Below, piece after piece: positions 17,466 to 33,900 of a stretch of DNA of 64,000 bases. Source of the DNA: Escherichia phage JSE. The position numbers were made by a program, and so were the translations under genes. Location: sequence record EU863408. The stretch is one strand, 5' to 3'. Within the stretch, counting starts at the first letter, position 1, and each line of letters starts with the position of its first letter. A model generated the notes under the pieces. That model did not search any database and was not told the DNA's origin. It worked only from the letters and a program-made list of their open reading frames with translations.

Positions 17466-17470
17466 CACCT

Positions 17471-18423: not shown

Positions 18424-18432
18424 AAGTCATTC

Positions 18433-18472
18433 CCCCAGATTGAAAATATTCAGTTATATTTATAATCTGGGG
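18433..18472 (-). promoter_or_regulatory. Hairpin (9 bp stem CCCCAGAUU/AAUCUGGGG) whose loop contains T4 late promoter consensus TATAAATA
   Basis: Minus-strand TATAAATA at 18457..18464, ~35 nt upstream of ATG 18423. Confidence 0.5.
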
Positions 18473-18491
18473 CTTTATTTATGATTAACTC

Positions 18492-19088
18492 TTATTTGGT
18501 AGTACCGTCAATAAAATGTTTACGACACACAGAAACATATTTATCCTCTGCACCAACTTCTATTTGAGCACCATCGCGAATAACATTACCCTCTTTATCT
18601 ACACGAAGGACCATTGTTGCTTTCTTGCCACAATGACAAATACCCTTCATTTCGACCAGTTTATCAGCAAATGCCATTAATGCCGCAGATCCTTCAAATA
18701 GATTGCCCTGAAAGTCAGTGCGAAGGCCATAGCACAGTACAGGGATATTAGCATCATCAACAAGCGCACACAAGCCTAAAACATGCTCTTTAGTCATAAA
18801 TTGGGCTTCATCTACAAATACAGCATCAGGACGCCAGCGATCCGGTCTACGCTTACCTAACGATTCACGATAAACCAAATCGAAAAGATCATCCGATTTA
18901 GTGAAGGTGATCGCTGGGGCACTTAGGCCAATTCGGGAAACGACTTCACTTTCTGAATCTCGATTATCAATCGCTGGCTTAAGAATTAATACTCGCATAT
19001 CACGTTCTGTATAGTTATAAGCACTTTGTAACAGAGAAGTTGATTTGCCAGCGTTCATAGATGCATAGTAGAAATATAATTGCGCCAT
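18492..19088 (-). CDS. tk: Thymidine kinase
   Basis: P-loop MNAGKST, C-terminal CHCGKKA...CRKHF zinc motif; 198 aa as in T4 Tk. Confidence 0.9.
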   Translation of the reverse strand: MAQLYFYYASMNAGKSTSLLQSAYNYTERDMRVLILKPAIDNRDSESEVVSRIGLSAPAITFTKSDDLFDLVYRESLGKRRPDRWRPDAVFVDEAQFMTKEHVLGLCALVDDANIPVLCYGLRTDFQGNLFEGSAALMAFADKLVEMKGICHCGKKATMVLRVDKEGNVIRDGAQIEVGAEDKYVSVCRKHFIDGTTK

Positions 19089-19381
19089 TAATTAATCTCC
19101 AAAAATCCAACAAGACCTAAACCGATATAAGTCCAGATACCAATAAAAAAGATGTTAATGCTCATGGCAAGGATAAACCCTTTCAGCGTTTTGGGATACC
19201 CGACCCAATATTCCCGACCATCTTCTAACCGGATCAGTTTATTGCCTTGAGAGTCCATATCAACTACAACATGTTTATTTCGAGATTGCAATAGATATTG
19301 TTTTACAATCTCTACACCCGCCATAATAACAATAACGAAAATAAAAGTCCACACAACAAGATTAATGATAGTCTCAAGCAT
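19088..19381 (-). CDS. Small membrane protein (97 aa)
   Basis: Two predicted TM segments; TAATG overlap with tk. Confidence 0.45.
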   Translation of the reverse strand: MLETIINLVVWTFIFVIVIMAGVEIVKQYLLQSRNKHVVVDMDSQGNKLIRLEDGREYWVGYPKTLKGFILAMSINIFFIGIWTYIGLGLVGFLEIN

Positions 19382-19616
19382 TTTCTATCACCTCCACCCA
19401 ATCAGGTGTTTCCTGAAAGACTCCTTCTCCTTCATGATGGTCGCAACCTTTATTGCTACAATACATCCACCAATCCCACATTCCCCACGGTAAACGCTGC
19501 ATATCGTCGTTACAGCAAGTGAAGATAATAGGCCAACCACATCTAACACATCGGCAGTTTTCTTTCATGTGAGCGGTATTCGGCTTCTTCATAGATGACT
19601 CCAATATAATCGACAT
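19374..19616 (-). CDS. Small Cys-rich (zinc-binding-like) protein (80 aa)
   Basis: CRCVRCGW...CCNDD...CSNKGCDHH. Confidence 0.4.
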   Translation of the reverse strand: MSIILESSMKKPNTAHMKENCRCVRCGWPIIFTCCNDDMQRLPWGMWDWWMYCSNKGCDHHEGEGVFQETPDWVEVIENA

Positions 19617-19819
19617 TTACATTTAGGGCAATGCGGTTCTTTAATATAATACCCGTCTGTCTTTGGAACACTAACAGGAGCGGTTTTTATATTGTATTCA
19701 GTGAAACAACGAAAACAAGTTACGTTTTCTACAGACTGACGTTTCACCCAATCACCGGAATATAGATCATTTTTATTTGTCATATTCAACCACCACAATG
19801 TTAATGTCTGGAGTAGCAA
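19589..19819 (-). CDS. Small zinc-ribbon-like protein (76 aa)
   Basis: CFRCF...CPKCKC. Confidence 0.4.
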   Translation of the reverse strand: MLLQTLTLWWLNMTNKNDLYSGDWVKRQSVENVTCFRCFTEYNIKTAPVSVPKTDGYYIKEPHCPKCKCRLYWSHL

Positions 19820-20228
19820 TATTAATGATCTCTTCTACACATTCCCACTCAAGGCCACCGATACCGCAACCGATTTTAGGAATATAGAAAGGCTGTATAG
19901 CACCTTCAAAAACATCATTGATAGTCTCAAATCCTTTCAGGATAGCACCATATTCAGCATTTGGACCCGGTCGGAATTGGGTATATAGATTCACCCCGCA
20001 CCAGTTATAACCATTAACTTGATGCGTCCAGACACTAAACCCACCCAGCTTTTCTACCTTACCGCGAGAAGTTTGCTTGTCAATCTCTAACGCTTGCGGG
20101 AACTCTTTCGCGATCTTTGCAGCAATACCAGCACCCATAGTATGAAAACAATTACAACCATGAATTAAATGACCGTTTCCTTGTTTAAACAGGGCGATGA
20201 GATCGCCCTTTACAGTATCAATAATCAT
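19773..20228 (-). CDS. Macro-domain protein (ADP-ribose binding/processing fold, 151 aa)
   Basis: GDLIAL...GHLIHGCNC...MGAGIAAKI and PKIGCGIGGL resemble macro-domain motifs; GAGAGG RBS. Confidence 0.65.
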   Translation of the reverse strand: MIIDTVKGDLIALFKQGNGHLIHGCNCFHTMGAGIAAKIAKEFPQALEIDKQTSRGKVEKLGGFSVWTHQVNGYNWCGVNLYTQFRPGPNAEYGAILKGFETINDVFEGAIQPFYIPKIGCGIGGLEWECVEEIINIATPDINIVVVEYDK

Positions 20229-20243
20229 AATATAAACCTCTCA

Positions 20244-20603
20244 TTAGTCACGGGAAGACAACCCAGCCATAAAACGGCTTAACAGTGTGTCGCGATAAGC
20301 AAAGCATAATTGCTTATCAGGGGCAGTATCACAAAGGTTGCGTTTTGTTTTAGCAAAGCTGGCAATACTCAGATCCCACGCTCGATTTTTTCGTTTTTCG
20401 TCTCGACCTTGTTTGTATGCTTCGTCGAGTTCAAGTGCGATAAAATCACTACACATGTTATCATCATCACAGAAAGTTTTAATGATCTTTTTGTTGATCT
20501 CAAATCCTTTGTATTCGAACTTTGGATAAGGGCGCTCATTACTAGCAAGCGCACCAGCCGAGAACATCATAGCAATCATAGCAATTATTGTCAACTTTTT
20601 CAT
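20244..20603 (-). CDS. Periplasmic protein with signal peptide (119 aa)
   Basis: MKKLTIIAMIAMMFSAGALA signal-like N-terminus. Confidence 0.45.
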   Translation of the reverse strand: MKKLTIIAMIAMMFSAGALASNERPYPKFEYKGFEINKKIIKTFCDDDNMCSDFIALELDEAYKQGRDEKRKNRAWDLSIASFAKTKRNLCDTAPDKQLCFAYRDTLLSRFMAGLSSRD

Positions 20604-20610
20604 ATATTCC

Positions 20611-21201
20611 TCAATAGCGTTTAGTCTTAAGAATGCCTTTACTCTTTAGATGGTTAGCCTTTTTTAGTACATCATCAGCATAACCTAACCCGGCTTTATA
20701 GTTCCATCCAGCATTGTAAGAAGCTAGCGCGAGTCGGATATTACCGTTTCGAACATCCAGCCAGTATGCTAACTCATCCATCGCGTAGAATGCAGAAACC
20801 TCGCGATTCATGATAAAGTTGATAGTCTGGCGATCACTCATTTTAACACCGCGCTTTGCATTTTTCGCTTTCACCGTTTTAAGGTAATTTTGAAATAATC
20901 CATAAGCATGATGATTTTTCTTTGGTGCTAAGTTTGCACCCGCGCTTGATTCTTGCCATGCGATACCCGCCAGGATGTGACCTAAACCCTTTCCGTTATA
21001 GCGAATATTCGGATGGTCCTTTTTCAACTTACCGCTTTTCTCGAATTGCTCGCCGTATTGATAGGCGAAATGTAAATTATCTAGTTGGTGTGCTGTAAAG
21101 TTGTCTATCGGCGCTTTTTTGATCGGTGCGCTAGTCGATGCGTGTGTAGCACCAACGGCTAGTGACAGACTCAATACTATCGCTTTTAGAACTTTTAACA
21201 T
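20611..21201 (-). CDS. Secreted lytic transglycosylase (SLT domain) with signal peptide
   Basis: Signal peptide; GIAWQESS...YGLFQ...ASYNAG motifs typical of SLT family. Confidence 0.7.
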   Translation of the reverse strand: MLKVLKAIVLSLSLAVGATHASTSAPIKKAPIDNFTAHQLDNLHFAYQYGEQFEKSGKLKKDHPNIRYNGKGLGHILAGIAWQESSAGANLAPKKNHHAYGLFQNYLKTVKAKNAKRGVKMSDRQTINFIMNREVSAFYAMDELAYWLDVRNGNIRLALASYNAGWNYKAGLGYADDVLKKANHLKSKGILKTKRY

Positions 21202-21287
21202 TAATTTCTCCTGTTTGGCTTAACTTTCTGATTCCATAATATAGCCCTATCACCAGAAAGTCAAGCATTATTTTTAACCAATTTCCA

Positions 21288-21710
21288 TTATTGGTCTACC
21301 TTCAAAACAACCGCCGACATTTTACCCGCCAGTCGTTTTGGATTCTCTATAATCATTCGGCAGCATAGACCGTGATATGGCTTACCCTCTTCGATTAGAT
21401 CTACTGTCATCCCGATCCACATGTTACCGTCAGTAATTTCTAATCGATTCGGTCGGTCTTCCATTTTCAGGAAGTCGAAGATCTCCGGCAAACGAGTTTC
21501 TATCTTATTGAATAGTTCCATTGTCTTATGTTCATCGATATGACGATCGGTTAGACGGTCGATCATATGCGGACTAAAGCGAATGAAAATATACTCACCG
21601 TAACCATCATTCAAGCACTTTTCTTTGATCTGCGCATTGGTTTTGCGCATTTCGGTTTCGAAGAATCTACGCAGCTTACTACGGCGAACATGTACGTTAA
21701 TTGTTTCCAT
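21288..21710 (-). CDS. regB: Endoribonuclease RegB
   Basis: INVHVRRSKLRRFFETE, RLEITDGNMWIGMTV and CRMIIENPKRLAGK match T4 RegB as recalled; ATG 21710 with AAAGGATAA RBS. Confidence 0.8.
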   Translation of the reverse strand: METINVHVRRSKLRRFFETEMRKTNAQIKEKCLNDGYGEYIFIRFSPHMIDRLTDRHIDEHKTMELFNKIETRLPEIFDFLKMEDRPNRLEITDGNMWIGMTVDLIEEGKPYHGLCCRMIIENPKRLAGKMSAVVLKVDQ

Positions 21711-21714
21711 TTTA

Positions 21715-22050
21715 TTATCCTTTCTTAAACAAATTGCGAATCCAGTATACAAACGGGATTTCTTTAAACTTGAATTTCTCTATAGTTAATTCTTTAGTAG
21801 CAAGATGAATACCATAAGCATCATGTGTAACTATATGCCATTTTCTATAGCCCAAATGTGAACAACCGTCTGGATCTAGGTTAATAAGAGTTTCTCGCTC
21901 ACTAGGATTATTTTTCCACAATTTTGTAATAGGATCGCACATAATTCGACCTAGCGTACCATGAATAATCTCACAACGGTAAAGTTTTCCAGCAGTGAGA
22001 TAGGCGCACCCGTCATAGTCGGTATAAACAAACACTTCTTTAACACTCAT
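21715..22050 (-). CDS. Paralog family B protein (DGCSHL motif, 111 aa)
   Basis: ATG 22050 after promoter cassette; DPDGCSHLGYRKWHI. Confidence 0.45.
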   Translation of the reverse strand: MSVKEVFVYTDYDGCAYLTAGKLYRCEIIHGTLGRIMCDPITKLWKNNPSERETLINLDPDGCSHLGYRKWHIVTHDAYGIHLATKELTIEKFKFKEIPFVYWIRNLFKKG

Positions 22051-22081
22051 TTTAATACTCCTTTGTTGTTTCGATGGGGGT

Positions 22082-22110
22082 ATATTACTACCCCCGATCA
22101 TGTGTGTCAA
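22082..22110 (-). promoter_or_regulatory. Early promoter cassette TTGACA-17-TAATAT inside GGGGGTA/TACCCCC palindrome
   Basis: Minus-strand read. Confidence 0.6.
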
Positions 22111-22372
22111 CTACTTTTTCAAGATTTTTTTTGATTGCATTCCAAAGACCTTTATTTCCAGGTTGTTTTGGTTCTTCGATCAGTGTCCATGTTCGACCGT
22201 CTAAGTGTGCACAATTTTTAAGGCAAATAAAAATCTGGTGTCCCTTATCAGCACGGATATAACCACTATTCGCAAATCTTTCATGTGGTGTATATTCATA
22301 CAGTGTATTAGGTGTAATATACTTGCGGTTACTATAAGGTGTCATCACATACATCATGGTACTAACTCCCAA
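22088..22372 (-). CDS. Paralog family B protein (94 aa)
   Basis: NCAHLDGRTWTL motif. Confidence 0.4.
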   Translation of the reverse strand: MGVSTMMYVMTPYSNRKYITPNTLYEYTPHERFANSGYIRADKGHQIFICLKNCAHLDGRTWTLIEEPKQPGNKGLWNAIKKNLEKVVDTHDRG

Positions 22373-22548
22373 CGATCACCGCGAAGATGAGAACATCCAC
22401 CATCAAGAAGTATCGTAATACGATAACCTATATCATCTTTGATGTAACCGATTGTCGGTGGATTTTCGTCGTCTCGTGCCGGGGTAAAATCATACATCTT
22501 TCCGGGCGTAATATCTTGTCCTTTATTGCTATTGGTATAAACTTGCAT
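22354..22548 (-). CDS. Paralog family B protein (64 aa)
   Basis: DGGCSHLRGDRWEL motif. Confidence 0.4.
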   Translation of the reverse strand: MQVYTNSNKGQDITPGKMYDFTPARDDENPPTIGYIKDDIGYRITILLDGGCSHLRGDRWELVP

Positions 22549-22569
22549 TTTCTTAATCTCCTATATTAA

Positions 22570-23268
22570 CTAACCACGGGTATAGTGTTCCAGAACAACG
22601 GTCAGATGAATATATTCTAATAGATCTTTCCAAAAGTCAACATCTGGTTCTTCCGGCATACCGTTTTTCTTTGCCTCTTCACGCGCGAGTTTAACACGCT
22701 CGTAGAGATCTTTCAATTCTTCCCGCACATTATCAAAGGTTCTTTCTCCTAACTTACACGCTAAAATAGAAGAACGTCGCGCGAGCGGGAATTGTAGATC
22801 ACCTGTCTGATAGATTTCAAGTAGCTGATAACCAACACGCAGAGCATGAGAAAGATCTTTCCAGTTACTGAAATACTTTTCAGATTTGGCTACCTGCTTT
22901 TTGAGATAGCCAGACAAACCCCACATACCAACATGATAGAATTTATCTCGATGTGTTCGGATGTATTCCCATTCTCTGGAGGATTCAACCAACATGTTAC
23001 TAGGCGCGTGCACCATATCAATAGCGCCGATATCGCCTTTACATGCCAGATTGATAAACCGTTTTAGACTGAACATATTAACGTCAATATCGTCTTTGGT
23101 GTTCTTGATCCCTTGACCGCTAGTGCTTTGATCATAGTGTTCTTTCATCGATCCTAAGATAATTTCTTTCGCAGTCGGAACAAAGATACCACGATAATCT
23201 TTATCGGAATTTTCAGTATCAAGGCCGTATAAGTGAGATCCGAAGACCATTTTAACCATTGTATGCAT
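22570..23268 (-). CDS. Pol-beta superfamily nucleotidyltransferase (232 aa) with C-terminal helical domain
   Basis: FGSHLYGLDTENSDKD matches GS-x10-DxD nucleotidyltransferase signature, third acidic DDIDV; GAGGGT RBS. Confidence 0.6.
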   Translation of the reverse strand: MHTMVKMVFGSHLYGLDTENSDKDYRGIFVPTAKEIILGSMKEHYDQSTSGQGIKNTKDDIDVNMFSLKRFINLACKGDIGAIDMVHAPSNMLVESSREWEYIRTHRDKFYHVGMWGLSGYLKKQVAKSEKYFSNWKDLSHALRVGYQLLEIYQTGDLQFPLARRSSILACKLGERTFDNVREELKDLYERVKLAREEAKKNGMPEEPDVDFWKDLLEYIHLTVVLEHYTRG

Positions 23269-23281
23269 AATTAAACCCTCA

Positions 23282-23812
23282 TTAGTATTTTACGTTACGT
23301 CGAACGCCTTTTCGAATCTGACAAATAGCAGACGGTGAAACATTATATTTTCTTGCAAGTTCTACACCCTTCATATGGGGAGAAGATAAAATCTCTTCCA
23401 CTTGGTCGTCGGTAAGTTTTGCGTTTCCGTGGTTCTCTCCCCAATTTTTGTTTAATCCTTCTTCCTTCGCATGAACAAGATTTCGGGTATCTGTCGTCCA
23501 TTCAAGATTATAAAGGTCATAGTTTTGTTTGTTTCCATCCTTATGATTAACTACACGGTAGTTATTTGGATTCGGAATAAACGCAACCGCCATAGCTTTA
23601 TGCATGTTCACGGTTTTTCTAAATCCATCCGGCTTATAACATACTGTAAATTTAGAATAACCAGTTTTACCATAAACACTAATATAATTTCCGGTCTCCG
23701 TATTTCTAACCCTACCATGAGAGCTAATCTCAAATTGAGTGTAGGGCAACAGCGCATCAATCACTTTCCATTCTTCGACAGGATGGTCATCACAATATCT
23801 TTTAATCATCAT
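23282..23812 (-). CDS. Free-standing HNH homing endonuclease with C-terminal HTH
   Basis: FIPNPNNYRVVNHKDGNKQNYDLYNLEWTT HNH motif; C-terminal LTDDQVEEIL...ARKYNVSPSAICQIRKG helix-turn-helix. Confidence 0.8.
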   Translation of the reverse strand: MMIKRYCDDHPVEEWKVIDALLPYTQFEISSHGRVRNTETGNYISVYGKTGYSKFTVCYKPDGFRKTVNMHKAMAVAFIPNPNNYRVVNHKDGNKQNYDLYNLEWTTDTRNLVHAKEEGLNKNWGENHGNAKLTDDQVEEILSSPHMKGVELARKYNVSPSAICQIRKGVRRNVKY

Positions 23813-23830
23813 ATCACCTCATAAAAATAA

Positions 23831-23852
23831 AGCCAACCCTTTCGGATTGGCT
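23831..23852 (-). terminator. Terminator after grcA (AGCCAAUCC-GAAA-GGGUUGGCU + U-rich tail)
   Basis: GNRA hairpin with wobble, followed by UUAUUUUUAU. Confidence 0.6.
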
Positions 23853-23859
23853 TAAAAAT

Positions 23860-24276
23860 TTACATTGCTTCCGTAAAGGTGCGCGAAATAACGTCACGTT
23901 GTTGGTCTGGAGTCAGACTATTGAATCTTACGGCATATCCGCTAACGCGAATGGTTAGTTGCGGATACTTATCAGGATTAGCAACCGCATCGAGAAGAAG
24001 ATCGCGACTCATAACATTGATATTAGCGTGCTGACCACCTTCGACAACCGGAGCACCATTATCTACAATCACCGGACGGAAGCTAGTTGTGTGCAGTGCC
24101 AGAGAATCGACGTCTTCTGCGGTGATCACATGGTCTTCTGCGAAAGTTTTACTAACAATTACTTTAGCGCCGATCAGTGCTTTCGGTTCGGATACCAGAA
24201 TCATAGGCGCGAAGTGTCCACCAATAATAGTACCTTTATGCTCACCTTTCATGATTTGAATTGCTTTAAATTCCAT
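23860..24276 (-). CDS. grcA: Autonomous glycyl radical cofactor GrcA (YfiD-like)
   Basis: C-terminal GGQHANINV...[36 protein letters not shown] nearly matches E. coli GrcA as recalled (RVSGYAV glycyl-radical loop); AAGAGGTGA RBS. Confidence 0.9.
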
Positions 24277-24411
24277 AATTCACCTCTTATAGATCAGGAC
24301 GTTCGTCATTAATTTTACCAACCAAAACACCATAGAGTTTATCAGGTTGGACTTTACGATTCTTTTTAATTGTAGCACGGAATCGACGAGCTACGCTATC
24401 TTTATTTTTCA

Positions 24412-24897
24412 TTAGTTGATACCTAAGCCAATGAAAATAGGTTGGTCTTCTACATTACCCATCCCAACACTAAGTCGATTCAATTCTAAAAACTGCAATA
24501 CGCTGTCAGTAAATCCGCGCATGGTAGTATCTAGGATAAAAATTGTTTTGTCAAGACTACGACCTCGCCATGTGATCGGATTCAGGAAAGTTCGGATAGA
24601 TGTACAATCTACATCTGAAATATTTACATTTTCACCGCGACCGCGATCTCGGATCGTTTTGGCATGTTCCCGCGTCGTTGAAACGATAAAGACACTATAG
24701 CCTTTTCGCGTATAATGGTCATATAACTTGATTGTAGCGTCTGTATGCCCTGTCTGACGGCCTAAATTGATTGAGACGATGGAATCTAGGTCATCAGCAA
24801 AATTGCGTCGCTTACGGCGTTCTATGATGCCATTTACGGCAGATACACACGCAGCATAAATCAAATCTTTACTTTCTAATTTTACATCAATATTCAT
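24412..24897 (-). CDS. Hypothetical protein (161 aa), possible degenerate P-loop (GRQTGHT)
   Basis: ORF with GGAGAC RBS; weak P-loop-like and hhhhD motifs only. Confidence 0.4.
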   Translation of the reverse strand: MNIDVKLESKDLIYAACVSAVNGIIERRKRRNFADDLDSIVSINLGRQTGHTDATIKLYDHYTRKGYSVFIVSTTREHAKTIRDRGRGENVNISDVDCTSIRTFLNPITWRGRSLDKTIFILDTTMRGFTDSVLQFLELNRLSVGMGNVEDQPIFIGLGIN

Positions 24898-24959
24898 GGT
24901 AAAGTCTCCAGTGAACGGGGAGAGATCCTTAGATTGTCTCCCCGTTGATGGTTAATATT

Positions 24960-25535
24960 TTATTTTGGATCTGGGAAATTCAATAGAGCATATTCTCCAT
25001 AAAATTTCCTAGCTGCATTATCATAAGCGATTGCAGCTTCGATTTCTGTGTCATATTGTCCAAGAACATGTCTTTGTAGGTTGACCATTATACTAGCTCT
25101 CCATTTCTTACGCAAATCCTTCCTGTTACACTTACTAACACCCTTATACACACTAGAAAACTTTTTAGACTTCTTCTTTCTATTATGTTGATTTTGCGCG
25201 TCGGTTGCCTCCCTAAGATTTGGAGGATTGTTATTAGCAGGATTACCGTCAATATGATCAATTAATCTAACTTGCGTCCCATGTTCTAGAAACCAAACAA
25301 CCCTATGCACGAATAGATGAACTCTAGGAAGACCGTCATCTCTACTATGCCAAAATCTAAGATGACCATCTTTATTTGTTCTGACTTTAACTAAATCGCC
25401 GTGTTTATATCTACTCCCTAATGGTCGTCCTTTGATAGCTTTACTATCGACTCTATAATATAAGATACCCTCTATATGAGCATATCTAAGTTTTATCTCG
25501 TTTTGTAGGGATTCATCCCAATATTTAAAAGCCAT
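24960..25535 (-). CDS. HNH endonuclease fused to AP2 DNA-binding domain
   Basis: HRVVWFLEHG...IDHIDGNPANNNPPNLREAT HNH motif and C-terminal YKGVSK...WRASI...YDNAARKFYGEYA AP2-like segment. Confidence 0.75.
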   Translation of the reverse strand: MAFKYWDESLQNEIKLRYAHIEGILYYRVDSKAIKGRPLGSRYKHGDLVKVRTNKDGHLRFWHSRDDGLPRVHLFVHRVVWFLEHGTQVRLIDHIDGNPANNNPPNLREATDAQNQHNRKKKSKKFSSVYKGVSKCNRKDLRKKWRASIMVNLQRHVLGQYDTEIEAAIAYDNAARKFYGEYALLNFPDPK

Positions 25536-25580
25536 TTTATAATCCTCACAAAGCCAGCGATTAAGCTGGCTTTATTTTAG

Positions 25581-25970
25581 TTATACCGGGTCTGGATATA
25601 CCTTTTTATCGAGTTCCATATGCGGTCCGTCTTTAAAAGTAACCCAATCAACACCGCAGATAACAGGAACACCCAATTCTCGACCAGCTTGTTTAAATGC
25701 ATCAGCGATCATACGGTAGTATTTCATGTTCCATGTATCCTTATCTTTCGGATACGCTACAACGTCAACCGCGAAACCGTGAAGATGACGAGATTTCATA
25801 GTCTTAGATTTACCTTCCGCAACATATTTCTTTTGCGTTTCTAGACTACGTACACCTTCCGTAATACCAAAATCGACCGGAGTCAGTTCTAACGCACGAT
25901 GAACGACTTTTACCAGGTCTGGATGCACACCAACAAGCCGATCTTTGCTTCTTTGAGATAATTTAAACAT
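25581..25970 (-). CDS. Endolysin, L-alanyl-D-glutamate peptidase (peptidase M15, T5-endolysin type)
   Basis: SRHLHGFAVD and DGPHMEL zinc-site motifs and N-terminal HRALELTPVDFGITEG resemble phage T5 endolysin as recalled; GGGGGTGA RBS. Confidence 0.85.
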   Translation of the reverse strand: MFKLSQRSKDRLVGVHPDLVKVVHRALELTPVDFGITEGVRSLETQKKYVAEGKSKTMKSRHLHGFAVDVVAYPKDKDTWNMKYYRMIADAFKQAGRELGVPVICGVDWVTFKDGPHMELDKKVYPDPV

Positions 25971-25998
25971 TATTCACCCCCTTTGTGAGTGATAATAT

Positions 25999-26190
25999 TT
26001 AGATCCCGGCGATCCTGCATAGAGTTCTTGTATTAGCACCAATAAGGATAGCATTAACGACAACCATTCCCCAATCAACCCACTGATTATTATAAATGCT
26101 AAATCCGTTTGCTAGGCCAAATACAAGCATTCCGGTACACATACTCAGAGCAATAATCAACATCACGGTAAAACCAAATGCAAATCTCAT
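25999..26190 (-). CDS. Small membrane protein (63 aa)
   Basis: Hydrophobic ORF immediately upstream of endolysin. Confidence 0.4.
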   Translation of the reverse strand: MRFAFGFTVMLIIALSMCTGMLVFGLANGFSIYNNQWVDWGMVVVNAILIGANTRTLCRIAGI

Positions 26191-26191
26191 A

Positions 26192-26458
26192 TTATTTTCC
26201 TTTTCTCTGTTTACGTTTATAAAAGTAATACATTACCTCATCGCGTCCGGTGATCCAACATGCTAGGGCGGTAAACAGGTTTACAATTCCCAACACACCT
26301 ACTGACGCGGCGCTGTCAACAGACATAGGAACAGTAAAGGCCATAGCTAACATAGCAACGCCACAAATGACATTAAGCACCATTATAATAAGACCGAAGA
26401 AAACCATTGTCAATCCTCCGACACAAGAAAACCAACAATCACGCCAGTGATAAGACAT
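26192..26458 (-). CDS. Small membrane protein (<=88 aa)
   Basis: Hydrophobic ORF; start probably internal. Confidence 0.35.
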   Translation of the reverse strand: MSYHWRDCWFSCVGGLTMVFFGLIIMVLNVICGVAMLAMAFTVPMSVDSAASVGVLGIVNLFTALACWITGRDEVMYYFYKRKQRKGK

Positions 26459-26601
26459 GATGCGCCGCTAATCAGACAACCCGCACCAAGTGATTCCCAC
26501 CAGATCAGAGAAGCGACAATAACACAGAATCCCCATACTACCGCAATCACAACATAGGCAAGGGTCGCCCAAAACATATATTTGTTCATAATAAATCCCA
26601 T
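26410..26601 (-). CDS. Small membrane protein (63 aa)
   Basis: Two TM-like segments. Confidence 0.4.
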   Translation of the reverse strand: MGFIMNKYMFWATLAYVVIAVVWGFCVIVASLIWWESLGAGCLISGASCLITGVIVGFLVSED

Positions 26602-26774
26602 TCACCAAACAAATAAGAAAAAAGCCATATCAACAGAAACGAGGCAATTGATCCGGCAAGCAAAATGATATTAGAGAATCCGCCGTCTATCCAGGCGACA
26701 AAACAGAATACGCCAGTATAGAAGCATAAACCAATTACAAAGCATACTATAAGCAACCATAGATAAAACGCCAT
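26586..26774 (-). CDS. Small membrane protein (62 aa)
   Basis: GGAGGG RBS; two TM-like segments. Confidence 0.4.
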   Translation of the reverse strand: MAFYLWLLIVCFVIGLCFYTGVFCFVAWIDGGFSNIILLAGSIASFLLIWLFSYLFGEWDLL

Positions 26775-26835
26775 AGAAAGCCCTCCATCGAGATAAATTA
26801 GTGCGGGTAGTACATTACCCTACCCGCATTGTTAA

Positions 26836-26994
26836 TCATCGCAGAGCGTGTTCTAGAACGATTCCACACCAACCGCTAACCACACCCAAACACACAGCAA
26901 CAAGCAGATTCATTCGGTCTTTTGGAATCATCGCAAACAGAACAACACCCACACAGAAAGCCATTACCATTGAAGTTAACATTTGTTCAACCAT
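26836..26994 (-). CDS. Small membrane protein (52 aa), not in ORF track
   Basis: ATG 26994 with AAAGGTG RBS (TGATAATG overlap with upstream stop); translation MVEQMLTSMVMAFCVGVVLFAMIPKDRMNLLVAVCLGVVSGWCGIVLEHALR. Confidence 0.4.
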   Translation of the reverse strand: MVEQMLTSMVMAFCVGVVLFAMIPKDRMNLLVAVCLGVVSGWCGIVLEHALR

Positions 26995-26996
26995 TA

Positions 26997-27335
26997 TCAC
27001 ACCTTTAAAGTCATAGACGCATAAACATTAATGTCAGGCCAGTTAGGTTCGCAATTATACTCAACATCCCACAAATAAAGCGGTTTAGATGTATCAGCCA
27101 AGTTTTTAAAATCTTCTACCCACATTTCAAGGCTATATGATGGATAAACTAGGCTATCATATCCGCCGTAACGTTGGCCTACTGGTCGGTCAGTAAAAAC
27201 TACCTCAAGATCCGGTAATTCTTTTTCAAGGATAACCGCCAGCGCATAAATCAGACGGTCTTCCTTGTTACGCTGCCGAAGGACCGTTGTCAGTGGGTTT
27301 TTCTGGTTCACTAGCAAGCACCTCCACATTTTCAC
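26997..27335 (-). CDS. Hypothetical protein (<=112 aa)
   Basis: ORF; 5' end overlaps upstream gene. Confidence 0.35.
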   Translation of the reverse strand: MKMWRCLLVNQKNPLTTVLRQRNKEDRLIYALAVILEKELPDLEVVFTDRPVGQRYGGYDSLVYPSYSLEMWVEDFKNLADTSKPLYLWDVEYNCEPNWPDINVYASMTLKV

Positions 27336-27588
27336 AGAATGAAATTTTCACAGACACAATTTTACCATAAGTGAAGAATGAATATACATTATCGAGATAT
27401 TCAACGTCACCTACAATCACATCAAACTGCGGATCAGCAACCGCCGCAACATATTCTACCAGTTCATCAAGAGAATGCAACTTAATTTCATCAATTCGGC
27501 TGTATTTGGTTGCATCTTTGATTTTAAAACCACGTTCTTTCAGCTTATCAATTAGAATTTCACGCGGAGTTTCAAACAGTTTGCTCAT
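27268..27588 (-). CDS. Hypothetical acidic protein (106 aa)
   Basis: ATG 27588 with GAGGATTATATT leader. Confidence 0.45.
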   Translation of the reverse strand: MSKLFETPREILIDKLKERGFKIKDATKYSRIDEIKLHSLDELVEYVAAVADPQFDVIVGDVEYLDNVYSFFTYGKIVSVKISFCENVEVLASEPEKPTDNGPSAA

Positions 27589-27610
27589 AATATAATCCTC
27601 ACATAGTTAA

Positions 27611-27805
27611 TCAATGGTCAATAATCTTGCACATTATAACAGAAAGAACAAAGACCGCAACCCACATATAGATCCCAGCAATCAATGCAATTTCAATATC
27701 ACAATATCCAAGATATACAACAGGAATAAAAACAAACATACAGACCAGCGCAAAGAAACTAGCAAAGACGCTAGAAAATCCGATAGCAGTATTAGTAATA
27801 TTCAT
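27611..27805 (-). CDS. Small membrane protein (64 aa)
   Basis: Hydrophobic ORF. Confidence 0.4.
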   Translation of the reverse strand: MNITNTAIGFSSVFASFFALVCMFVFIPVVYLGYCDIEIALIAGIYMWVAVFVLSVIMCKIIDH

Positions 27806-27806
27806 A

Positions 27807-27989
27807 TTAACAATCCTCGCGGCTTAAGTCAACAGCAATTGCATACAGCATAATGAATATGCTAGCCGATCCGAGAATCAATGCACCCTCACATTTTGAA
27901 ACTCGCTCATCAAAATGTAACATTATCCATCCGAGGATGTTAAAGGCGCAGACCGCGCCTATGTTCGCTAACCAATTAATCTTTTTCAT
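27807..27989 (-). CDS. Small membrane protein (60 aa)
   Basis: Hydrophobic ORF. Confidence 0.4.
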   Translation of the reverse strand: MKKINWLANIGAVCAFNILGWIMLHFDERVSKCEGALILGSASIFIMLYAIAVDLSREDC

Positions 27990-27997
27990 AATATACC

Positions 27998-28324
27998 TTA
28001 GAAAGAAACAGTTTTCAAGAAATCCAGATTTTTAGTACCGAAAACAGAAAAGTAGTGTTTTCCTTTTTCGGTTTTAGAGAAAGCGATTGTCTTCTCTACA
28101 TGGTGACGGAAGCCAGACAGACGATCACCCAGGTCAAGGCGGCAAGCGTAAGTAGTGCCGTTTTCGAAAGTAACCTCGATTTGAGTTTTGTCATATTCGC
28201 TTTCATAGGCTTTTGCTGCCGCTTCCTGTGCTTTACGCTCGAAGTCTTCGAAGTGGAATACTTCGTTTGCGTTAGCGAATACAGAAGATTCAGAGAAGAT
28301 AACTTTAACAGATACTGGTTTCAT
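27998..28324 (-). CDS. Hypothetical protein (108 aa)
   Basis: ATG 28324 after promoter cassette and conserved leader. Confidence 0.45.
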   Translation of the reverse strand: MKPVSVKVIFSESSVFANANEVFHFEDFERKAQEAAAKAYESEYDKTQIEVTFENGTTYACRLDLGDRLSGFRHHVEKTIAFSKTEKGKHYFSVFGTKNLDFLKTVSF

Positions 28325-28367
28325 TTTGATACTCCTTAGTAGTTCGTGTTTCGTTTCGATGGGTGTA

Positions 28368-28395
28368 TTATGCTATACACCCTCTCTCGTGTCAA
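28368..28395 (-). promoter_or_regulatory. Early promoter cassette TTGACA-16-CATAAT inside GGGTGTAT/ATACACCC palindrome
   Basis: Minus-strand read; leader ACACCCATCGAAACGAAACAC. Confidence 0.6.
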
Positions 28396-28402
28396 CAACT
28401 TT

Positions 28403-28591
28403 TTAGTCTTTTTTCATAATTTCTAGAGCAGTTTCTACAGCACCTTTCCAACCTTCCCACATAATGGACATAGTAAGGAAGTTAAAGCACCCGCAGGAAT
28501 CAACCTTTTTAGAGATAAACCATTCTACAAACGCTTCGCTCATACCATGCTCTTTAGCGGATTCGCGTAATTGTTCAATTTGGTCTTCCAT
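28403..28591 (-). CDS. Hypothetical small protein (62 aa)
   Basis: ORF. Confidence 0.35.
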   Translation of the reverse strand: MEDQIEQLRESAKEHGMSEAFVEWFISKKVDSCGCFNFLTMSIMWEGWKGAVETALEIMKKD

Positions 28592-28613
28592 AGTATCACC
28601 TCAACACTTAACG

Positions 28614-28808
28614 TTATTCAAACTCAAACGGTCTATTCATCCTATTGTAAAAGTACATATAACAAGCATAGTTATGTTTTGGTTGTACCGTATCAGATAG
28701 ACACGCTTTTACAGCCTCGCGGTCCGATGGGTCTACACCCTCAGCTTTAAGTAATGCTAAAATCTGGTTATAGCGTACTCTTAGTTGTACTAATGGTTTA
28801 TCCCCCAT
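28614..28808 (-). CDS. Hypothetical small protein (64 aa)
   Basis: ORF. Confidence 0.35.
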   Translation of the reverse strand: MGDKPLVQLRVRYNQILALLKAEGVDPSDREAVKACLSDTVQPKHNYACYMYFYNRMNRPFEFE

Positions 28809-28817
28809 ATTACCCCC

Positions 28818-29039
28818 TTATAGTTGATCAGCGATGTAAGCGTGACAAGCGCGGAGTTTCATTAATGCACTACCTTTCACTTCGCCTACGATGTTCATAA
28901 CTTCTAAGCGGTCGGATGGATTCATCTTAGAGCACCAGATCTGGTTAGCCAATTCCAGTTTACTCATATTTGGTTCCATCTCAAACAGTTCACGCTCAAA
29001 GTCGATAATTTCTTTTGCTGCGTCTTTAAAGTTAATCAT
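28818..29039 (-). CDS. Hypothetical small protein (73 aa)
   Basis: ATG 29039 after promoter cassette. Confidence 0.4.
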   Translation of the reverse strand: MINFKDAAKEIIDFERELFEMEPNMSKLELANQIWCSKMNPSDRLEVMNIVGEVKGSALMKLRACHAYIADQL

Positions 29040-29068
29040 TTTGATTCTCCCGTTTCGTTGATGGTTGT

Positions 29069-29097
29069 ATTGTAGGGGAGTTATCCTCCCCTGTCAA
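29069..29097 (-). promoter_or_regulatory. Early promoter cassette TTGACA-17-TACAAT with palindromic spacer GGGGAGGATAACTCCCC
   Basis: Minus-strand read. Confidence 0.6.
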
Positions 29098-29105
29098 CAC
29101 TTTTA

Positions 29106-29291
29106 TCAGAAATATGCAATATAGTTTGCCAGTCCGACAGAGTCATCATTCGGCATTGCTTTTACTGCCAGTTCAAACCCTGCTTCAACTTTCTGTTTAG
29201 CGGATTCTTCGTTATAACCCCAGATTACCAGAATAGCTACTACGTTTTCTTTGCTTACTGCTTTCAGTGCTTTAGTGATGCGACGTGCCAT
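29106..29291 (-). CDS. Hypothetical small protein (61 aa)
   Basis: ATG 29291 after promoter cassette and conserved leader. Confidence 0.4.
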   Translation of the reverse strand: MARRITKALKAVSKENVVAILVIWGYNEESAKQKVEAGFELAVKAMPNDDSVGLANYIAYF

Positions 29292-29337
29292 AATTTGATT
29301 CTCCGTTTAAGAAAGTGTGTTTCGTTTCGATGGGTGT

Positions 29338-29366
29338 ATTATGCTATAGGCCGGATCTGGTGTCAA
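29338..29366 (-). promoter_or_regulatory. Early promoter cassette TTGACA-17-CATAAT with A/T-rich upstream region
   Basis: Minus-strand read; leader ACACCCATCGAAACGAAACACAC. Confidence 0.6.
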
Positions 29367-29395
29367 CAACTTTTTTTAAAAAAAATTTTTAGGCA

Positions 29396-29421
29396 ATAAA
29401 AAAGCCACTCCGAAGAGTGGC
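29396..29421 (-). terminator. Rho-independent terminator (GCCACUC-UUCG-GAGUGGC + UUUUUU)
   Basis: 7 bp perfect stem, UUCG loop, U6 tail on minus strand. Confidence 0.75.
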
Positions 29422-29570
29422 TTATAGGGAAGGTAGCGAATCTTCCTTGTCTCCAACCTGCTAGCGGCCTAGCAAGTGAATGCTTTAGCGTACCGGATCG
29501 CCCATACGCTGCAATAAATGCGGCTAGGTGACGTCCAAATCATTCTAACCGCGCTGTCTTTAGTTCACTA
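29422..29570 (-). ncRNA. Candidate structured non-coding RNA / long structured 3' UTR
   Basis: 149 nt with no ORF of >=60 aa between a stop codon and a strong terminator; at least four predicted hairpins (GCGGUUAG/CUAGCCGC, AGCGUA/UACGCU, UGCUAG/CUAGCA, GGAAG/CUUCC). Confidence 0.3.
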
Positions 29571-29789
29571 TTATTTATATCGCTTTCTCTCGCGACGTTT
29601 TTGATCTTCTTCCTTGATAGAGTTAAATGCATCAAAAAGACACATGACACTAATAATAAACATAACCGTATTTTCTACGATATCCCACGGCTTCGCATCA
29701 GTACAGATCCCCCAAACGGTAAGAAATGCAAATAGTGCAGAAGAGATCACAAGCATGATACTTGCTAAGATATAAAAAGTCATTTTCAT
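29571..29789 (-). CDS. Small membrane protein (72 aa)
   Basis: Hydrophobic ORF, basic C-terminus. Confidence 0.4.
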   Translation of the reverse strand: MKMTFYILASIMLVISSALFAFLTVWGICTDAKPWDIVENTVMFIISVMCLFDAFNSIKEEDQKRRERKRYK

Positions 29790-29980
29790 GGTTTTACCTC
29801 AATTCTTCGATATTCATCACACATCCACGCAGTAAGCAAGAATCCTAACACATAAGCAACAAAATACGTTAATGCTTCTTCTGGTTCTGTGCTGTGTATC
29901 ATCATTAAACCAGCTAGAACGGTCTTAACAATTACATTTAAAATAATTAGCCACGCAAATAATTTCATCGTTTGCCCCAT
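29786..29980 (-). CDS. Small membrane protein (64 aa)
   Basis: Hydrophobic ORF. Confidence 0.4.
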   Translation of the reverse strand: MGQTMKLFAWLIILNVIVKTVLAGLMMIHSTEPEEALTYFVAYVLGFLLTAWMCDEYRRIEVKP

Positions 29981-30204
29981 TTCGGTCGAGTCTTTTCAAA
30001 CTTATACATTCCGTAACAATCTCGAATCATCCACGTAACAAGAGCACCAGTCAACACAGACAATACACAGAAGAAGTAAAACGGTCCAGTTGCATTATCA
30101 ACATGAGCAAGCCATGTAAAGAAAACACATGCTAAGAATGTAAAGAACATCATAAAACACAAGAAAGCAAAATATTTTATGCTACTCATAGCGCCACCAT
30201 ACAA
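29965..30204 (-). CDS. Small membrane protein (79 aa)
   Basis: Hydrophobic ORF. Confidence 0.4.
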   Translation of the reverse strand: MYGGAMSSIKYFAFLCFMMFFTFLACVFFTWLAHVDNATGPFYFFCVLSVLTGALVTWMIRDCYGMYKFEKTRPKWGKR

Positions 30205-30292
30205 CAGATCATAAGAAAACCCAACGCAATAAGAATTGCATCAAATTTAGTGAACTCAGGTCCACCTATCAACATCATTCGTTCCTGTTCAT

Positions 30293-30490
30293 TCATAGAT
30301 CACAGAGCCATCTTACAGCACCACATAAAGCGATCAAAAGACTAGGTATAAACGAGATTACAACAAGTTTACAAAAATCATCTAAGGTAACACCGGAATA
30401 GCTACCTACTGTAACAACACCGATCATCAGACACAGAAAGAAAACAAATGCAATCAGAAACAAAGTATTGCTAAACAGTTTAGTGATCAT
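30293..30490 (-). CDS. Small membrane protein (65 aa)
   Basis: Hydrophobic ORF. Confidence 0.4.
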   Translation of the reverse strand: MITKLFSNTLFLIAFVFFLCLMIGVVTVGSYSGVTLDDFCKLVVISFIPSLLIALCGAVRWLCDL

Positions 30491-30684
30491 TAGACACCCC
30501 CACGACGATCAATTTCAAAAACTTTTTTACCATCAACGAAGCATGTCACAACTGCCTCGTTGACTTCCGCAAATTGTTGTGTCACCCACTTAAGGTCAGA
30601 GCGAAACAATGTTCTATTAATAACAAATGTTTTACCGCTCTTATCCTTACCCATAAATTTTGCTTTAACCATATCCAATTCCAT
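30490..30684 (-). CDS. Hypothetical small protein (64 aa)
   Basis: ORF. Confidence 0.35.
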   Translation of the reverse strand: MELDMVKAKFMGKDKSGKTFVINRTLFRSDLKWVTQQFAEVNEAVVTCFVDGKKVFEIDRRGGV

Positions 30685-30693
30685 ATTATCACC

Positions 30694-30852
30694 TTATTTG
30701 CTAATCGCTAAACCCAATCCGAAGAGAGCACCCGATGCTACAGTATACCCGAAAGTTTCAAATGCAGTAAAGATATCTAAGCCACCAGCTAACAGAGTTG
30801 CAGTAAACAGAGTACCAGCTACGAACATAAAAGTTTTACCGATAAATTTCAT
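30694..30852 (-). CDS. Small membrane protein (52 aa), not in ORF track
   Basis: ATG 30852 directly after promoter cassette and GGAGAATCAAA leader; translation MKFIGKTFMFVAGTLFTATLLAGGLDIFTAFETFGYTVASGALFGLGLAISK. Confidence 0.45.
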   Translation of the reverse strand: MKFIGKTFMFVAGTLFTATLLAGGLDIFTAFETFGYTVASGALFGLGLAISK

Positions 30853-30883
30853 TTTGATTCTCCTTTCGTTTGTTTGTGGGGGT

Positions 30884-30912
30884 ATCTTACTACCCCCGTT
30901 TCATGTTGTCAA
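30884..30912 (-). promoter_or_regulatory. Early promoter cassette TTGACA-17-TAAGAT inside GGGGGTA/TACCCCC palindrome
   Basis: Minus-strand read. Confidence 0.6.
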
Positions 30913-30918
30913 CTGTTT

Positions 30919-31293
30919 TTAAGAAAATTTTACTTCGTCTACAATGTCTTTCATGACATTGATTTCCATTCCGGTCAGAACACGTTGGAACATGTGCTGC
31001 ACATACGCTTTCAGGTATTCATTTGATGGCTTGCTATCGAAAGTCTTTTTAGTGTAGTAGTCATCACCGAAAGCTACTGTAATTACATTTTCGTCGTCGT
31101 TCCAAGCGATATAAGCAAATTTGCCGTTATCCCAGAAGCGAGCACTAATTGCTACTTTTGTTGAATCGAATCCTACTTCGCTGTGAGATTCAAGAACTAC
31201 TTGCGTACCAGTTTCTTTATGAATGTAGTAGCGGGATACTAAGTCAAAGTTACGGGTGTAGTGACATTCGAATTTATCTTTAAACATCATCAT
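30919..31293 (-). CDS. Hypothetical protein (~125 aa)
   Basis: ATG-ATG-ATG at 31293 after conserved leader; ORF-track start 31362 runs through promoter. Confidence 0.45.
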   Translation of the reverse strand: MMMFKDKFECHYTRNFDLVSRYYIHKETGTQVVLESHSEVGFDSTKVAISARFWDNGKFAYIAWNDDENVITVAFGDDYYTKKTFDSKPSNEYLKAYVQHMFQRVLTGMEINVMKDIVDEVKFS

Positions 31294-31330
31294 TTTGATT
31301 CTCCTAAGTGTGTTTCGTTTCGATATGTGC

Positions 31331-31360
31331 ATTATGCTATAGTCGTTTATGGTTGTCAAC
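31331..31360 (-). promoter_or_regulatory. Early promoter TTGACA-18-CATAAT
   Basis: Minus-strand read; leader GCACATATCGAAACGAAACACAC. Confidence 0.55.
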
Positions 31361-31365
31361 ACCTA

Positions 31366-31396
31366 AAAACAAAAAACCCCGAAAAATTTTCGGGGT
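31366..31396 (-). terminator. Rho-independent terminator after acb1 (CCCCGAAAA/UUUUCGGGG + U run)
   Basis: Palindromic GC-clamped hairpin followed by UUUUUUGUUUUU. Confidence 0.7.
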
Positions 31397-31402
31397 ATAA
31401 AA

Positions 31403-31867
31403 TTACAGTTTGGTCGTCCACTCCAGGTCTAGATCTTCGACATACTCATGAGATCGGACAATCTCTAAATCGAACTCTAGGTCAGTGCCAAATTTACGCG
31501 CACCAACATCATAAGAAAGCGTGATATGCGGTACATATTCAGGATAATCCCACGTCGCGCCTAAAGCAGTGCCGATATCGTGTCTGAATTGCATGTAGTC
31601 GCTTTCAAATGCCAACACAAGCGCATTAGTACCGGATTGAGTTTCAAACACTTTCAGATGGCATAGAGAGCCTAAAAACTTTTCACCCTCTTCTGGGATA
31701 AACGGAACATAGACACGAGAATATAAGATAGTGCTATGCAGTTTATCACGAGGAACGGCATTAGGCAGATCGTAGAACTCCTGCAATTTTTCAATGCGGT
31801 CTAGTGTATCCTCAGTGAATTTAACAGCCGCATATGTACCTTTAACGGATTCTCGAAACGGGGTCAT
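31403..31867 (-). CDS. acb1: 2H phosphoesterase, anti-CBASS protein Acb1 (T4 gene 57B position)
   Basis: Two H-x-T/S-x motifs (HSTIL, HITLS); 154 aa; immediately downstream of 57A as in T4. Confidence 0.75.
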   Translation of the reverse strand: MTPFRESVKGTYAAVKFTEDTLDRIEKLQEFYDLPNAVPRDKLHSTILYSRVYVPFIPEEGEKFLGSLCHLKVFETQSGTNALVLAFESDYMQFRHDIGTALGATWDYPEYVPHITLSYDVGARKFGTDLEFDLEIVRSHEYVEDLDLEWTTKL

Positions 31868-31869
31868 AA

Positions 31870-32130
31870 TCAAGCCTCCGTGATCAGTTCTACTTCCTCT
31901 TCTGCGTCTTCCGCTGCTTCGTCTTTAGGGAGAAGTGCTTTCACTTCTTCGACAATAGCATCAAGGGAAACAGTCCCGTTTTCGTCTGGCTGAATACCCA
32001 GAATGCGTACCAGTTCCATCAATACACGCTCACGATCTTTCAGTTGGCCTTCTAAGAATGCGGCCTTTTCTTGAGTGTCAAACAGACGTACTTTCAGGAC
32101 ATTAATCATTTGTTCATGCTGATTGGACAT
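31870..32130 (-). CDS. 57A: Tail fiber assembly chaperone gp57A
   Basis: 86 aa acidic coiled-coil protein at the T4 57A position; AGGAGA RBS. Confidence 0.65.
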   Translation of the reverse strand: MSNQHEQMINVLKVRLFDTQEKAAFLEGQLKDRERVLMELVRILGIQPDENGTVSLDAIVEEVKALLPKDEAAEDAEEEVELITEA

Positions 32131-32162
32131 ATTCACATCTCCTACTTGTTGATAACTTTTTA

Positions 32163-32819
32163 TTAAATGTTCGCGAGAATCGCGCTTTCAAATTCTTCTA
32201 ATGTACCATTATTTATGATAATGGTTTCACCGTCAATAGGCAAAATTCCTTTTTCGGTGGAGTGAGTCGATACAATACCAGTATCACGCTGAATATGCAA
32301 CACCTTAGCACCCATAGCACGCACGAGAGCAATTTCAATAGGCTGACGCACATCAACCACTACAAAATAACCTTCTTCATTTTTGCGCTTCATAAACTCA
32401 TTCACGAATAGATTACACCAATAAAGCGGATTGATCAAGTTAACCATTATATCAGTACCGAGAGTGGTTAACATGAGACGAATAGACCAGACGTTATTAT
32501 GTTTTTCGCCAATCTCATTAACGACCTTGTAAATCTCAGCCAGACGATCACAAGTAAAGGAACTACCGCCATACTTCGAATCTAGCATAAGCAGACACTG
32601 AATAAACCACTTATGCGCGGTATAGGTATCAATACCTAGATCGGCTTCTCTGTCACGCCCTAACCCGTCAAAGTCAAGATAAGTCAGACCTAAGTCTGGT
32701 TGACATTCGCACAATATTTCTTTGATCGGTGCTGCCAGTTGATAACTATGTCCATCAATGATTAACGCGGCAGTATCTTTTCCTACTCGCTTTTTACCAC
32801 AAAGTGCAATCAATTTCAT
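32163..32819 (-). CDS. 1: Deoxynucleoside monophosphate kinase gp1
   Basis: N-terminal P-loop LCGKKRVGKDT; syntenic with T4 gene 1. Confidence 0.8.
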   Translation of the reverse strand: MKLIALCGKKRVGKDTAALIIDGHSYQLAAPIKEILCECQPDLGLTYLDFDGLGRDREADLGIDTYTAHKWFIQCLLMLDSKYGGSSFTCDRLAEIYKVVNEIGEKHNNVWSIRLMLTTLGTDIMVNLINPLYWCNLFVNEFMKRKNEEGYFVVVDVRQPIEIALVRAMGAKVLHIQRDTGIVSTHSTEKGILPIDGETIIINNGTLEEFESAILANI

Positions 32820-32834
32820 TATATAAGCCTCTTA

Positions 32835-33425: not shown

Positions 33426-33615
33426 TACTGATTCCTCAAATGAAAATATTTATTAACAATTGTCGCTTTGCGACGTGCCGGAGGCACTGACTACTTTTTA
33501 ACCGAAACAAATTTTCTATTATTCTAAAGATCTTTCTTCGTTTTGGTTATGTTTTAACCAATAACTATATTTTTATACAGTAATAAATAAAACGGGTACT
33601 ATACGAGGACTTCTT

Positions 33616-33870: not shown

Positions 33871-33871
33871 T

Positions 33872-33894: not shown

Positions 33895-33900
33895 TTAATG

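Follow-up and report, generated by a model that had tools for sequence, protein, structure and literature searches.

The window, by which we mean the whole 64,000-nucleotide stretch of DNA that was analysed, falls by nucleotide identity within the RB49 group of T4-like coliphages (genus Krischvirus). Over the 9 kb around its endolysin gene, the window shares 95-98% identity with 57 RB49-group coliphage records. The best relative is phage Whisky (97.5% over the 9 kb), in whose genome the window corresponds to approximately 30.8-93.7 kb. The endolysin gene is flanked on one side by a cassette carrying a putative homing endonuclease and on the other by a run of small membrane-protein ORFs. The features on which the following account depends are listed here, with the evidence for each in brackets.

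18121..18423, minus strand: rI, encoding a predicted antiholin, the T4-type sensor of lysis inhibition (Pfam PF24205 Antiholin, E=9.1e-23; annotated as rI in the relative 011D4).
20611..21201, minus strand: vs.1 ortholog, encoding a predicted secreted SLT (GH23) protein of 196 aa (Pfam, PHROG, comparison with T4, alignment and structural model).
24960..25535, minus strand: putative free-standing HNH-AP2 homing endonuclease gene, 191 aa (Pfam, PHROG, presence and absence among relatives, junctions).
25536..25580, minus strand: cassette spacer in which a G+C-rich hairpin (25550..25573), read by other annotators as a terminator, immediately precedes the HNH ribosome-binding site.
25581..25661, minus strand: foreign replacement segment, endolysin codons 104 to stop (identity comparisons, linkage with the HNH gene).
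25581..25970, minus strand: endolysin gene, encoding a predicted M15C zinc L-alanoyl-D-glutamate endopeptidase of 129 aa, ortholog of EndoRB49 (Pfam, PHROG, PDB, residue comparison).
25965..26000, minus strand: predicted RNA hairpin in which upstream sequence pairs with the Shine-Dalgarno sequence and AUG of the endolysin (folding).
25999..26190, 26192..26407, 26410..26589, 26586..26774 and 26836..26994, minus strand: five consecutive ORFs directly upstream of the endolysin gene, each with two predicted transmembrane segments (conserved).
37029..38828, plus strand: gene for gp5, the baseplate hub with tail lysozyme (tblastn with T4 e; gp5 annotation in relatives).

The endolysin ORF begins with an ATG preceded by GGGGGTGA. 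Its 129-aa product contains both motifs, SRHLHGFAVD (residues 60-69) and DGPHMEL (residues 114-120), from which the first-pass annotation had proposed a T5-like peptidase of family M15, and searches of Pfam, PHROG and PDB all keep the protein inside that family. The Pfam match is to PF13539 (Peptidase_M15_4; 33.9 bits against a cut-off of 25, E=4.8e-8) and the PHROG match is to family 465, "endolysin" (E=5.5e-63). Among solved structures the protein matches 23ri (E=2e-77), with which residues 1-103 are identical, 8q2g, described as a "peptidoglycan L-alanyl-D-glutamate endopeptidase" (3e-74), ChiX of Serratia (2e-32), and the T5 endolysin 2mxz (3e-20). These profile and structure-database matches are far beyond chance. 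In EndoRB49, H62, D69 and H117 are the zinc ligands, D114 is the catalytic residue, and W109 has been mutagenised (PMC10487532). All three ligands are present at the EndoRB49 positions in the 129-aa protein, H62 and D69 within SRHLHGFAVD and H117 within DGPHMEL, and D114 and the conserved W109 are kept as well, though they lie inside the replaced 3' segment. No signal peptide or transmembrane segment was found in the protein, and since its N-terminus is not hydrophobic, a soluble cytoplasmic enzyme is expected. On the grounds of family, catalytic residues and orthology, the ORF is assigned as a phage endolysin.

The closest characterised enzyme is EndoRB49 (8q2g; a closely related structure is 23ri), which has been cloned and purified as an L-alanoyl-D-glutamate peptidase (Mikoulinskaia et al. 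2018, J Gen Virol 99:402, as cited in PMC8140593). The two share the gene, its genomic position, the 129-aa length and the five residues named above. They differ in residues 104-129, which are ICGVDWVTFKDGPHMELDKKVYPDPV in the window against EWGGDWTSFKDGPHLQLPHSKYPDP (11 of the 26 final residues are identical to 23ri), and in the surroundings of the gene, since the RB49 reference genome has no homing endonuclease cassette at the endolysin site. [quoted passage not shown] The T5 enzyme (2mxz, 8p3a; M15C) is similar in fold family, in the layout of zinc ligands and catalytic aspartate, and in L-Ala-D-Glu specificity as shown for EndoRB49. However, it is distant in sequence (E=3e-20), is 137 aa long, and is activated by Ca2+ via a loop around W114, whereas the RB49 enzyme is described as an ortholog of the T5 enzyme that is free of this ion regulation (PMC10487532). 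Phage T5 itself differs in phage type and in the arrangement of its lysis genes.

Lysozyme e of T4 has a comparable role as a soluble, holin-dependent endolysin, and its gene has roughly the same neighbourhood, after the vs genes and before 57B. In contrast to the window's peptidase it is a glycosidase (a GH24 muramidase) of unrelated fold and chemistry. A tblastn search of the window with T4 e found no similarity to the 129-aa protein; the sole match (37569..38054, 42.6% identity) lies within gp5. A free-standing e-type lysozyme was likewise absent from the complete 165,615-bp Whisky genome, where the same query again found gp5 only. The proposed non-orthologous replacement of lysozyme e by an M15 peptidase is thus correct. 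It is also already in the literature: cloning, assays and mutagenesis of EndoRB49 have been published, as has its structure (PMC8140593, PMC10487532, PDB 8q2g and 23ri), and because the swap in RB49 and RB43 has been on record since 2018, finding it again in the window adds nothing.

The position of the endolysin gene between regB (21288..21752) and 57B (31406..31867) is as the first-pass annotation had it, and its description of this position as the T4 e locus holds in that broad sense. It does not extend to a gene-by-gene equivalence, as most T4 genes of the interval were not detected. The order in T4 is tk, tk.1-4, vs, vs.1, regB, vs.3-vs.8, denV, ipII, ipIII, e, nudE, e.2-e.8, tRNAs, segB, ipI and 57B, whereas the order in the window is tk, tk.4, vs, vs.1, regB, vs.6, a weak vs.8 homolog, the endolysin gene, small ORFs, 57B, 1, 3, 2, 4, 53 and 5. 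Among the T4 genes between regB and 57B, vs.6 alone matches the window in tblastn at E<=1e-3 (23860..24276, minus strand; a glycyl-radical cofactor homolog that has been kept), and vs.8 is weakly recognisable by pairwise comparison (25% identity, E=9e-6). The genes that flank e in T4 (denV, ipII, ipIII and nudE) were not detected in the window by tblastn, nor were e.2-e.8 and ipI. The T4 tRNA cluster sits between e and 57B, whereas ARAGORN found no tRNA genes in positions 1..64000. Gene 57A has no tblastn match in the window; the annotation of the relative 011D4 places it between 57B and 1. A homolog of nrdC.11, an RlaP/nucleotidyltransferase-like gene that is located elsewhere in T4, lies among the vs genes of the window (22570..23268, minus strand).

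The 3' end of the endolysin gene departs from that of the RB49-type allele. Its final 81 nucleotides are 60.5% identical to that allele, which relatives such as 011D4 and the RB49 reference carry without an HNH gene behind it; identity is 97.1% for codons 1-103 and 100% for the DNA past the insertion. At the protein level the segment brings the 14 changes relative to 23ri (e.g., E104I in addition to W105C and G107V) and keeps W109, D114 and H117. Directly beyond lies the spacer and then the 191-aa ORF, which matches Pfam HNH_3 (E=2.6e-10, above cut-off) and PHROG 99, HNH endonuclease (1.4e-43); its AP2 match (25.2 bits) is below the cut-off of 33.3. The last residues of this ORF, CCAGATCCAAAATAA, reveal the junction, for the PDPK-stop and everything downstream of it are the original tail of the RB49-type endolysin (..KYPDPK, stop). 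The cassette was therefore inserted within the final five codons of the endolysin gene, supplying a substitute end (..VYPDPV, stop). By these comparisons the window's endolysin allele is a chimera, the last 26 codons of which came with the HNH-AP2 cassette.

The distribution of the cassette among relatives points in the same direction. The HNH gene is present in 12 of the 57 Krischvirus records, the variant endolysin end is present in the same 12, and the other 45 have neither. The probability of so perfect an association arising by chance is 1/C(57,12)=1.4e-12, a figure that ignores shared ancestry. A metagenomic sister lineage without the HNH gene has a similar C-terminus (VCGVDW...ELDKKVYPDPR), with 86.4% nucleotide identity in the segment. 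In metagenomic contig L011 the endolysin gene follows the sister-lineage sequence up to nucleotide 171 and the window's sequence from nucleotide 192, after which comes a near-identical cassette. This is a co-conversion tract of approximately 200 nucleotides in a second genetic background.

Ordinary homologous recombination with the sister lineage, with the HNH gene as a passive or dead passenger, would also yield a divergent endolysin 3' end, and the natural occurrence of a similar C-terminus in a lineage without the HNH gene speaks for it. We regard this explanation as unlikely, since it has to contend with the perfect linkage of the HNH gene and the variant end (12 of 12 records with the gene, none of the 45 without), with the recurrence of the cassette and its conversion tract in the different background of L011, and with a divergence that starts abruptly beside the insertion between flanks that are 97-100% identical. 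In 11 of the 12 records, moreover, the HNH ORF is intact, with conservation of at least 99%.

The pattern of insertion instead carries the signature of a free-standing homing endonuclease, and we take it to resemble that of SegF, SegG and MobE of T4. As with these T-even enzymes and their "intronless homing", and with the HNH-AP2 class, a free-standing ORF (here HNH-AP2) lies between conserved genes and is polymorphic in presence and absence among near-identical genomes, the adjacent conserved gene has a sharply diverged flank, and the co-conversion tract is found in a second background. What sets the window apart is that the insertion falls within the final codons of the endolysin gene, and that the substitute 3' end supplied by the cassette encodes the active-site residues. 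The activity of the HNH protein is predicted from these features. A specific form of the proposal is that the HNH-AP2 gene encodes an active homing endonuclease that targets the RB49-type endolysin gene at its 3' end, where the active site is encoded. It would spread by intronless homing, carry a cleavage-resistant version of the last 26 codons, reuse the old tail (PDPK, stop) to finish its own ORF, and give rise to chimeric endolysins whose loop next to W109, D114 and H117 is altered (W105C, G107V). We rate this form slightly above an even proposition. Earlier papers note the HNH-AP2 class in RB49, RB43 and JSE (PMC1524935, PMC2993671), and a literature search found this class described only in general, with no description of a homing endonuclease beside an RB49-group endolysin gene. 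The chimeric allele linked to a homing endonuclease is the only new element at the locus, a new case of a known type of event.

Other endonuclease genes occur elsewhere in the window. A second free-standing gene of 176 aa (23282..23812, minus strand; NUMOD4 and a weak HNH_3 match) has the nrdC.11/RlaP-like gene on one side and vs.6 on the other; 011D4 and metagenomic contig L014 have it too, and contigs L012, L013 and L015 lack it. On the plus strand, an ORF of 251 aa (55551..56306) between the genes for gp14 and gp15 is 53% identical in its N-terminal part to T4 SegB, a homing endonuclease of the GIY-YIG type. In Whisky the genes for gp14 and gp15 are adjacent, 26 nucleotides apart.

The ORF at 20611..21201, described in the first-pass annotation as a signal-bearing SLT protein between regB and tk (18492..19088), lies more precisely between vs (20244..20603) and regB. 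This is the vs|vs.1|regB slot of T4, and the product is 52% identical to T4 Vs.1 (E=2e-55). It matches Pfam SLT PF01464 (26.1 bits against a cut-off of 21.3, E=6.6e-6). By inspection, the N-terminal sequence MLKVLKAIVLSLSLAVGATHA/STS is built like a Sec signal peptide, with n-, h- and c-regions; as this contains no cysteine, there is no lipobox, and the protein would be expected to be soluble in the periplasm. Across 22 aligned homologs, T4 Vs.1 and proteins of Aeromonas and Serratia phages among them, E84 (in WQESS), the motif Y100-G101-x-F103-Q104-N105, and the motif S161-Y162-N163-A164-G165 are invariant or at least 90% conserved. A sequence search of PDB returned nothing meaningful. An AlphaFold model, built from an alignment in which the T4 sequence was left out, has a pLDDT of 82.4, and each of its top 22 matches among PDB folds is to MltD, Slt, a goose-type lysozyme or GH23 chitinase, at weak scores (E>=0.01, TM 0.4-0.5; probability mostly 0.9-1.0). 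The SLT similarity of vs.1 products across T4-like phages was reported by Nolan et al. 2006 (PMC1524935), who suggested "some role in cell lysis". The vs.1 product is probably a periplasmic lytic transglycosylase conserved in T4-like phages. It is alike to T4 Vs.1 in identity, position, signal peptide and SLT motifs, with no difference of substance.

The first-pass annotation had regarded this protein as a second murein hydrolase candidate alongside the replaced lysis enzyme, with a speculative role in the periplasm. The SLT domain was confirmed, while the protein proved to be the ortholog of T4 vs.1 in its T4 slot and not a companion of the replacement; since T4 holds vs.1 together with e, the gene is unconnected with the endolysin swap. 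The conserved catalytic glutamate and the three SLT motifs, the signal peptide, the Pfam score above cut-off, and a model whose top 22 folds all belong to lytic transglycosylases, goose-type lysozymes or GH23 chitinase might suggest that the vs.1 product is the real or a co-essential periplasmic lysis enzyme, with the M15 peptidase as an accessory only. We consider this very improbable. The presence of vs.1 at the same place in T4 indicates that it coexists with either type of endolysin, and T4 genetics shows that T4 depends on e for lysis despite its vs.1. The fold matches of the model are weak, and EndoRB49 alone lyses cells in vitro (Mikoulinskaia 2018, as cited in PMC8140593). The vs.1 protein is in any case not specific to the window, and the same modest question stands for T4 itself. 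Scarcely credible at all is the idea that the M15 protein is not lytic but a ChiX-like secretion helper or a VanX/DD-peptidase-like wall remodeller, for which one may cite the Pfam description of PF13539 as a D-Ala-D-Ala carboxypeptidase family and the rank of ChiX, which supports chitinase secretion, as the next closest solved structure (E=2e-32), but against which stand residues 1-103, identical to a protein of the EndoRB49 group with its demonstrated lytic L-Ala-D-Glu peptidase activity, the lack of any other endolysin candidate found in the Whisky genome, and the identity of PHROG 465 as an endolysin family.

The M15 peptidase is thus best read as the lysis enzyme, and the genes that would time its release are of T4 type. 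The rI gene lies just upstream of tk in the window; an exact TATAAATA is located ahead of it (18457..18464, minus strand), as expected for a late-expressed lysis-inhibition gene. The holin gene t is found in Whisky at 156,592-157,248, in its T4 position after the tail-fibre genes, and encodes a protein 48.5% identical to T4 T. RB49 is listed in the T4 families of i-spanins and o-spanins (PMC6139136). From rI in the window, t in Whisky and the spanins of RB49, it is likely that a different enzyme is released by T4-style, holin-gated lysis, with the T4 holin/antiholin timing system kept; for t and the spanins this is an extension from relatives.

The small ORFs next to the endolysin gene were examined as candidate holin genes. 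Between 25999 and 27989 on the minus strand there are seven membrane ORFs of 52-71 aa, most with two predicted transmembrane segments, in a run interrupted by two soluble ORFs (26997..27588). The seven have no Pfam match, and a PHROG scan of the four nearest the endolysin gene returned only families of "unknown function". No significant similarity was detected among the small membrane ORFs, and none to known holins. The two nearest the endolysin gene, which were the two searched, are confined to the 57 Krischvirus records. One of these (26192..26407) combines two transmembrane segments with a strongly basic C-terminus (YKRKQRKGK), a layout like that of class II holins but also a common pattern. 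The suggestion that a holin might be found among these ORFs was rejected as unsupported, because the canonical holin gene t exists elsewhere, at its T4 position in Whisky.

Expression of the endolysin may be subject to control at its leader. A 70-nucleotide stretch of the leader folds at -16 kcal/mol (z=-2.9; none of 200 shuffled sequences was as stable), the predicted hairpin sequestering the ribosome-binding site and the start codon. The leader of T4 e folds alike, with two TATAAATA late promoters in its 5' arm, and this fold matches the known translational control of T4 e. Since relatives share this sequence unchanged, there is no covariation by which to judge the hairpin of the window. The upstream ORF ends within the 5' arm (stop codon 25999..26001), and translational coupling is therefore a possible alternative. 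No exact late promoter TATAAATA was found ahead of the endolysin gene, the five exact sites in the window being elsewhere. A candidate late promoter in the leader hairpin, TCTAAATA (26003..25996), was rejected; it matches at only seven of eight positions, and one-mismatch matches number 102 against 138 expected by chance.

Taken together, we are highly confident that the locus is best explained by an M15 endolysin in place of lysozyme e, gated by holin T, with vs.1 independent of the exchange and the endolysin allele a chimera. In the RB49 lineage, the peptidase takes the place of lysozyme e, the lysozyme fold surviving only in the tail lysozyme domain of gp5. Because it lacks an export signal, the endolysin would have to wait until the T4-type holin T has made the inner membrane permeable; its holin dependence is predicted on these grounds. 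Holin T, the canonical locus of which lies outside the window in close relatives, would be timed by the RI antiholin encoded in the window, and the T4-family spanins reported for RB49 would complete lysis. The HNH-AP2 cassette that inserted in the 3' end of the endolysin gene brought the last 26 codons with it.

An M15 peptidase in place of the T4 lysozyme illustrates that holin-gated lysis is independent of the chemistry of the endolysin. The chimeric allele, though of minor consequence, gives a clean instance from nature of an essential late gene whose catalytic end has been rewritten by a mobile endonuclease. This allele is carried by roughly one-fifth of Krischvirus isolates, some of them candidates for phage therapy, and since the replaced segment alters residues near W109, among them W105C and G107V, the properties established for EndoRB49 may not transfer exactly to the endolysins of these phages.
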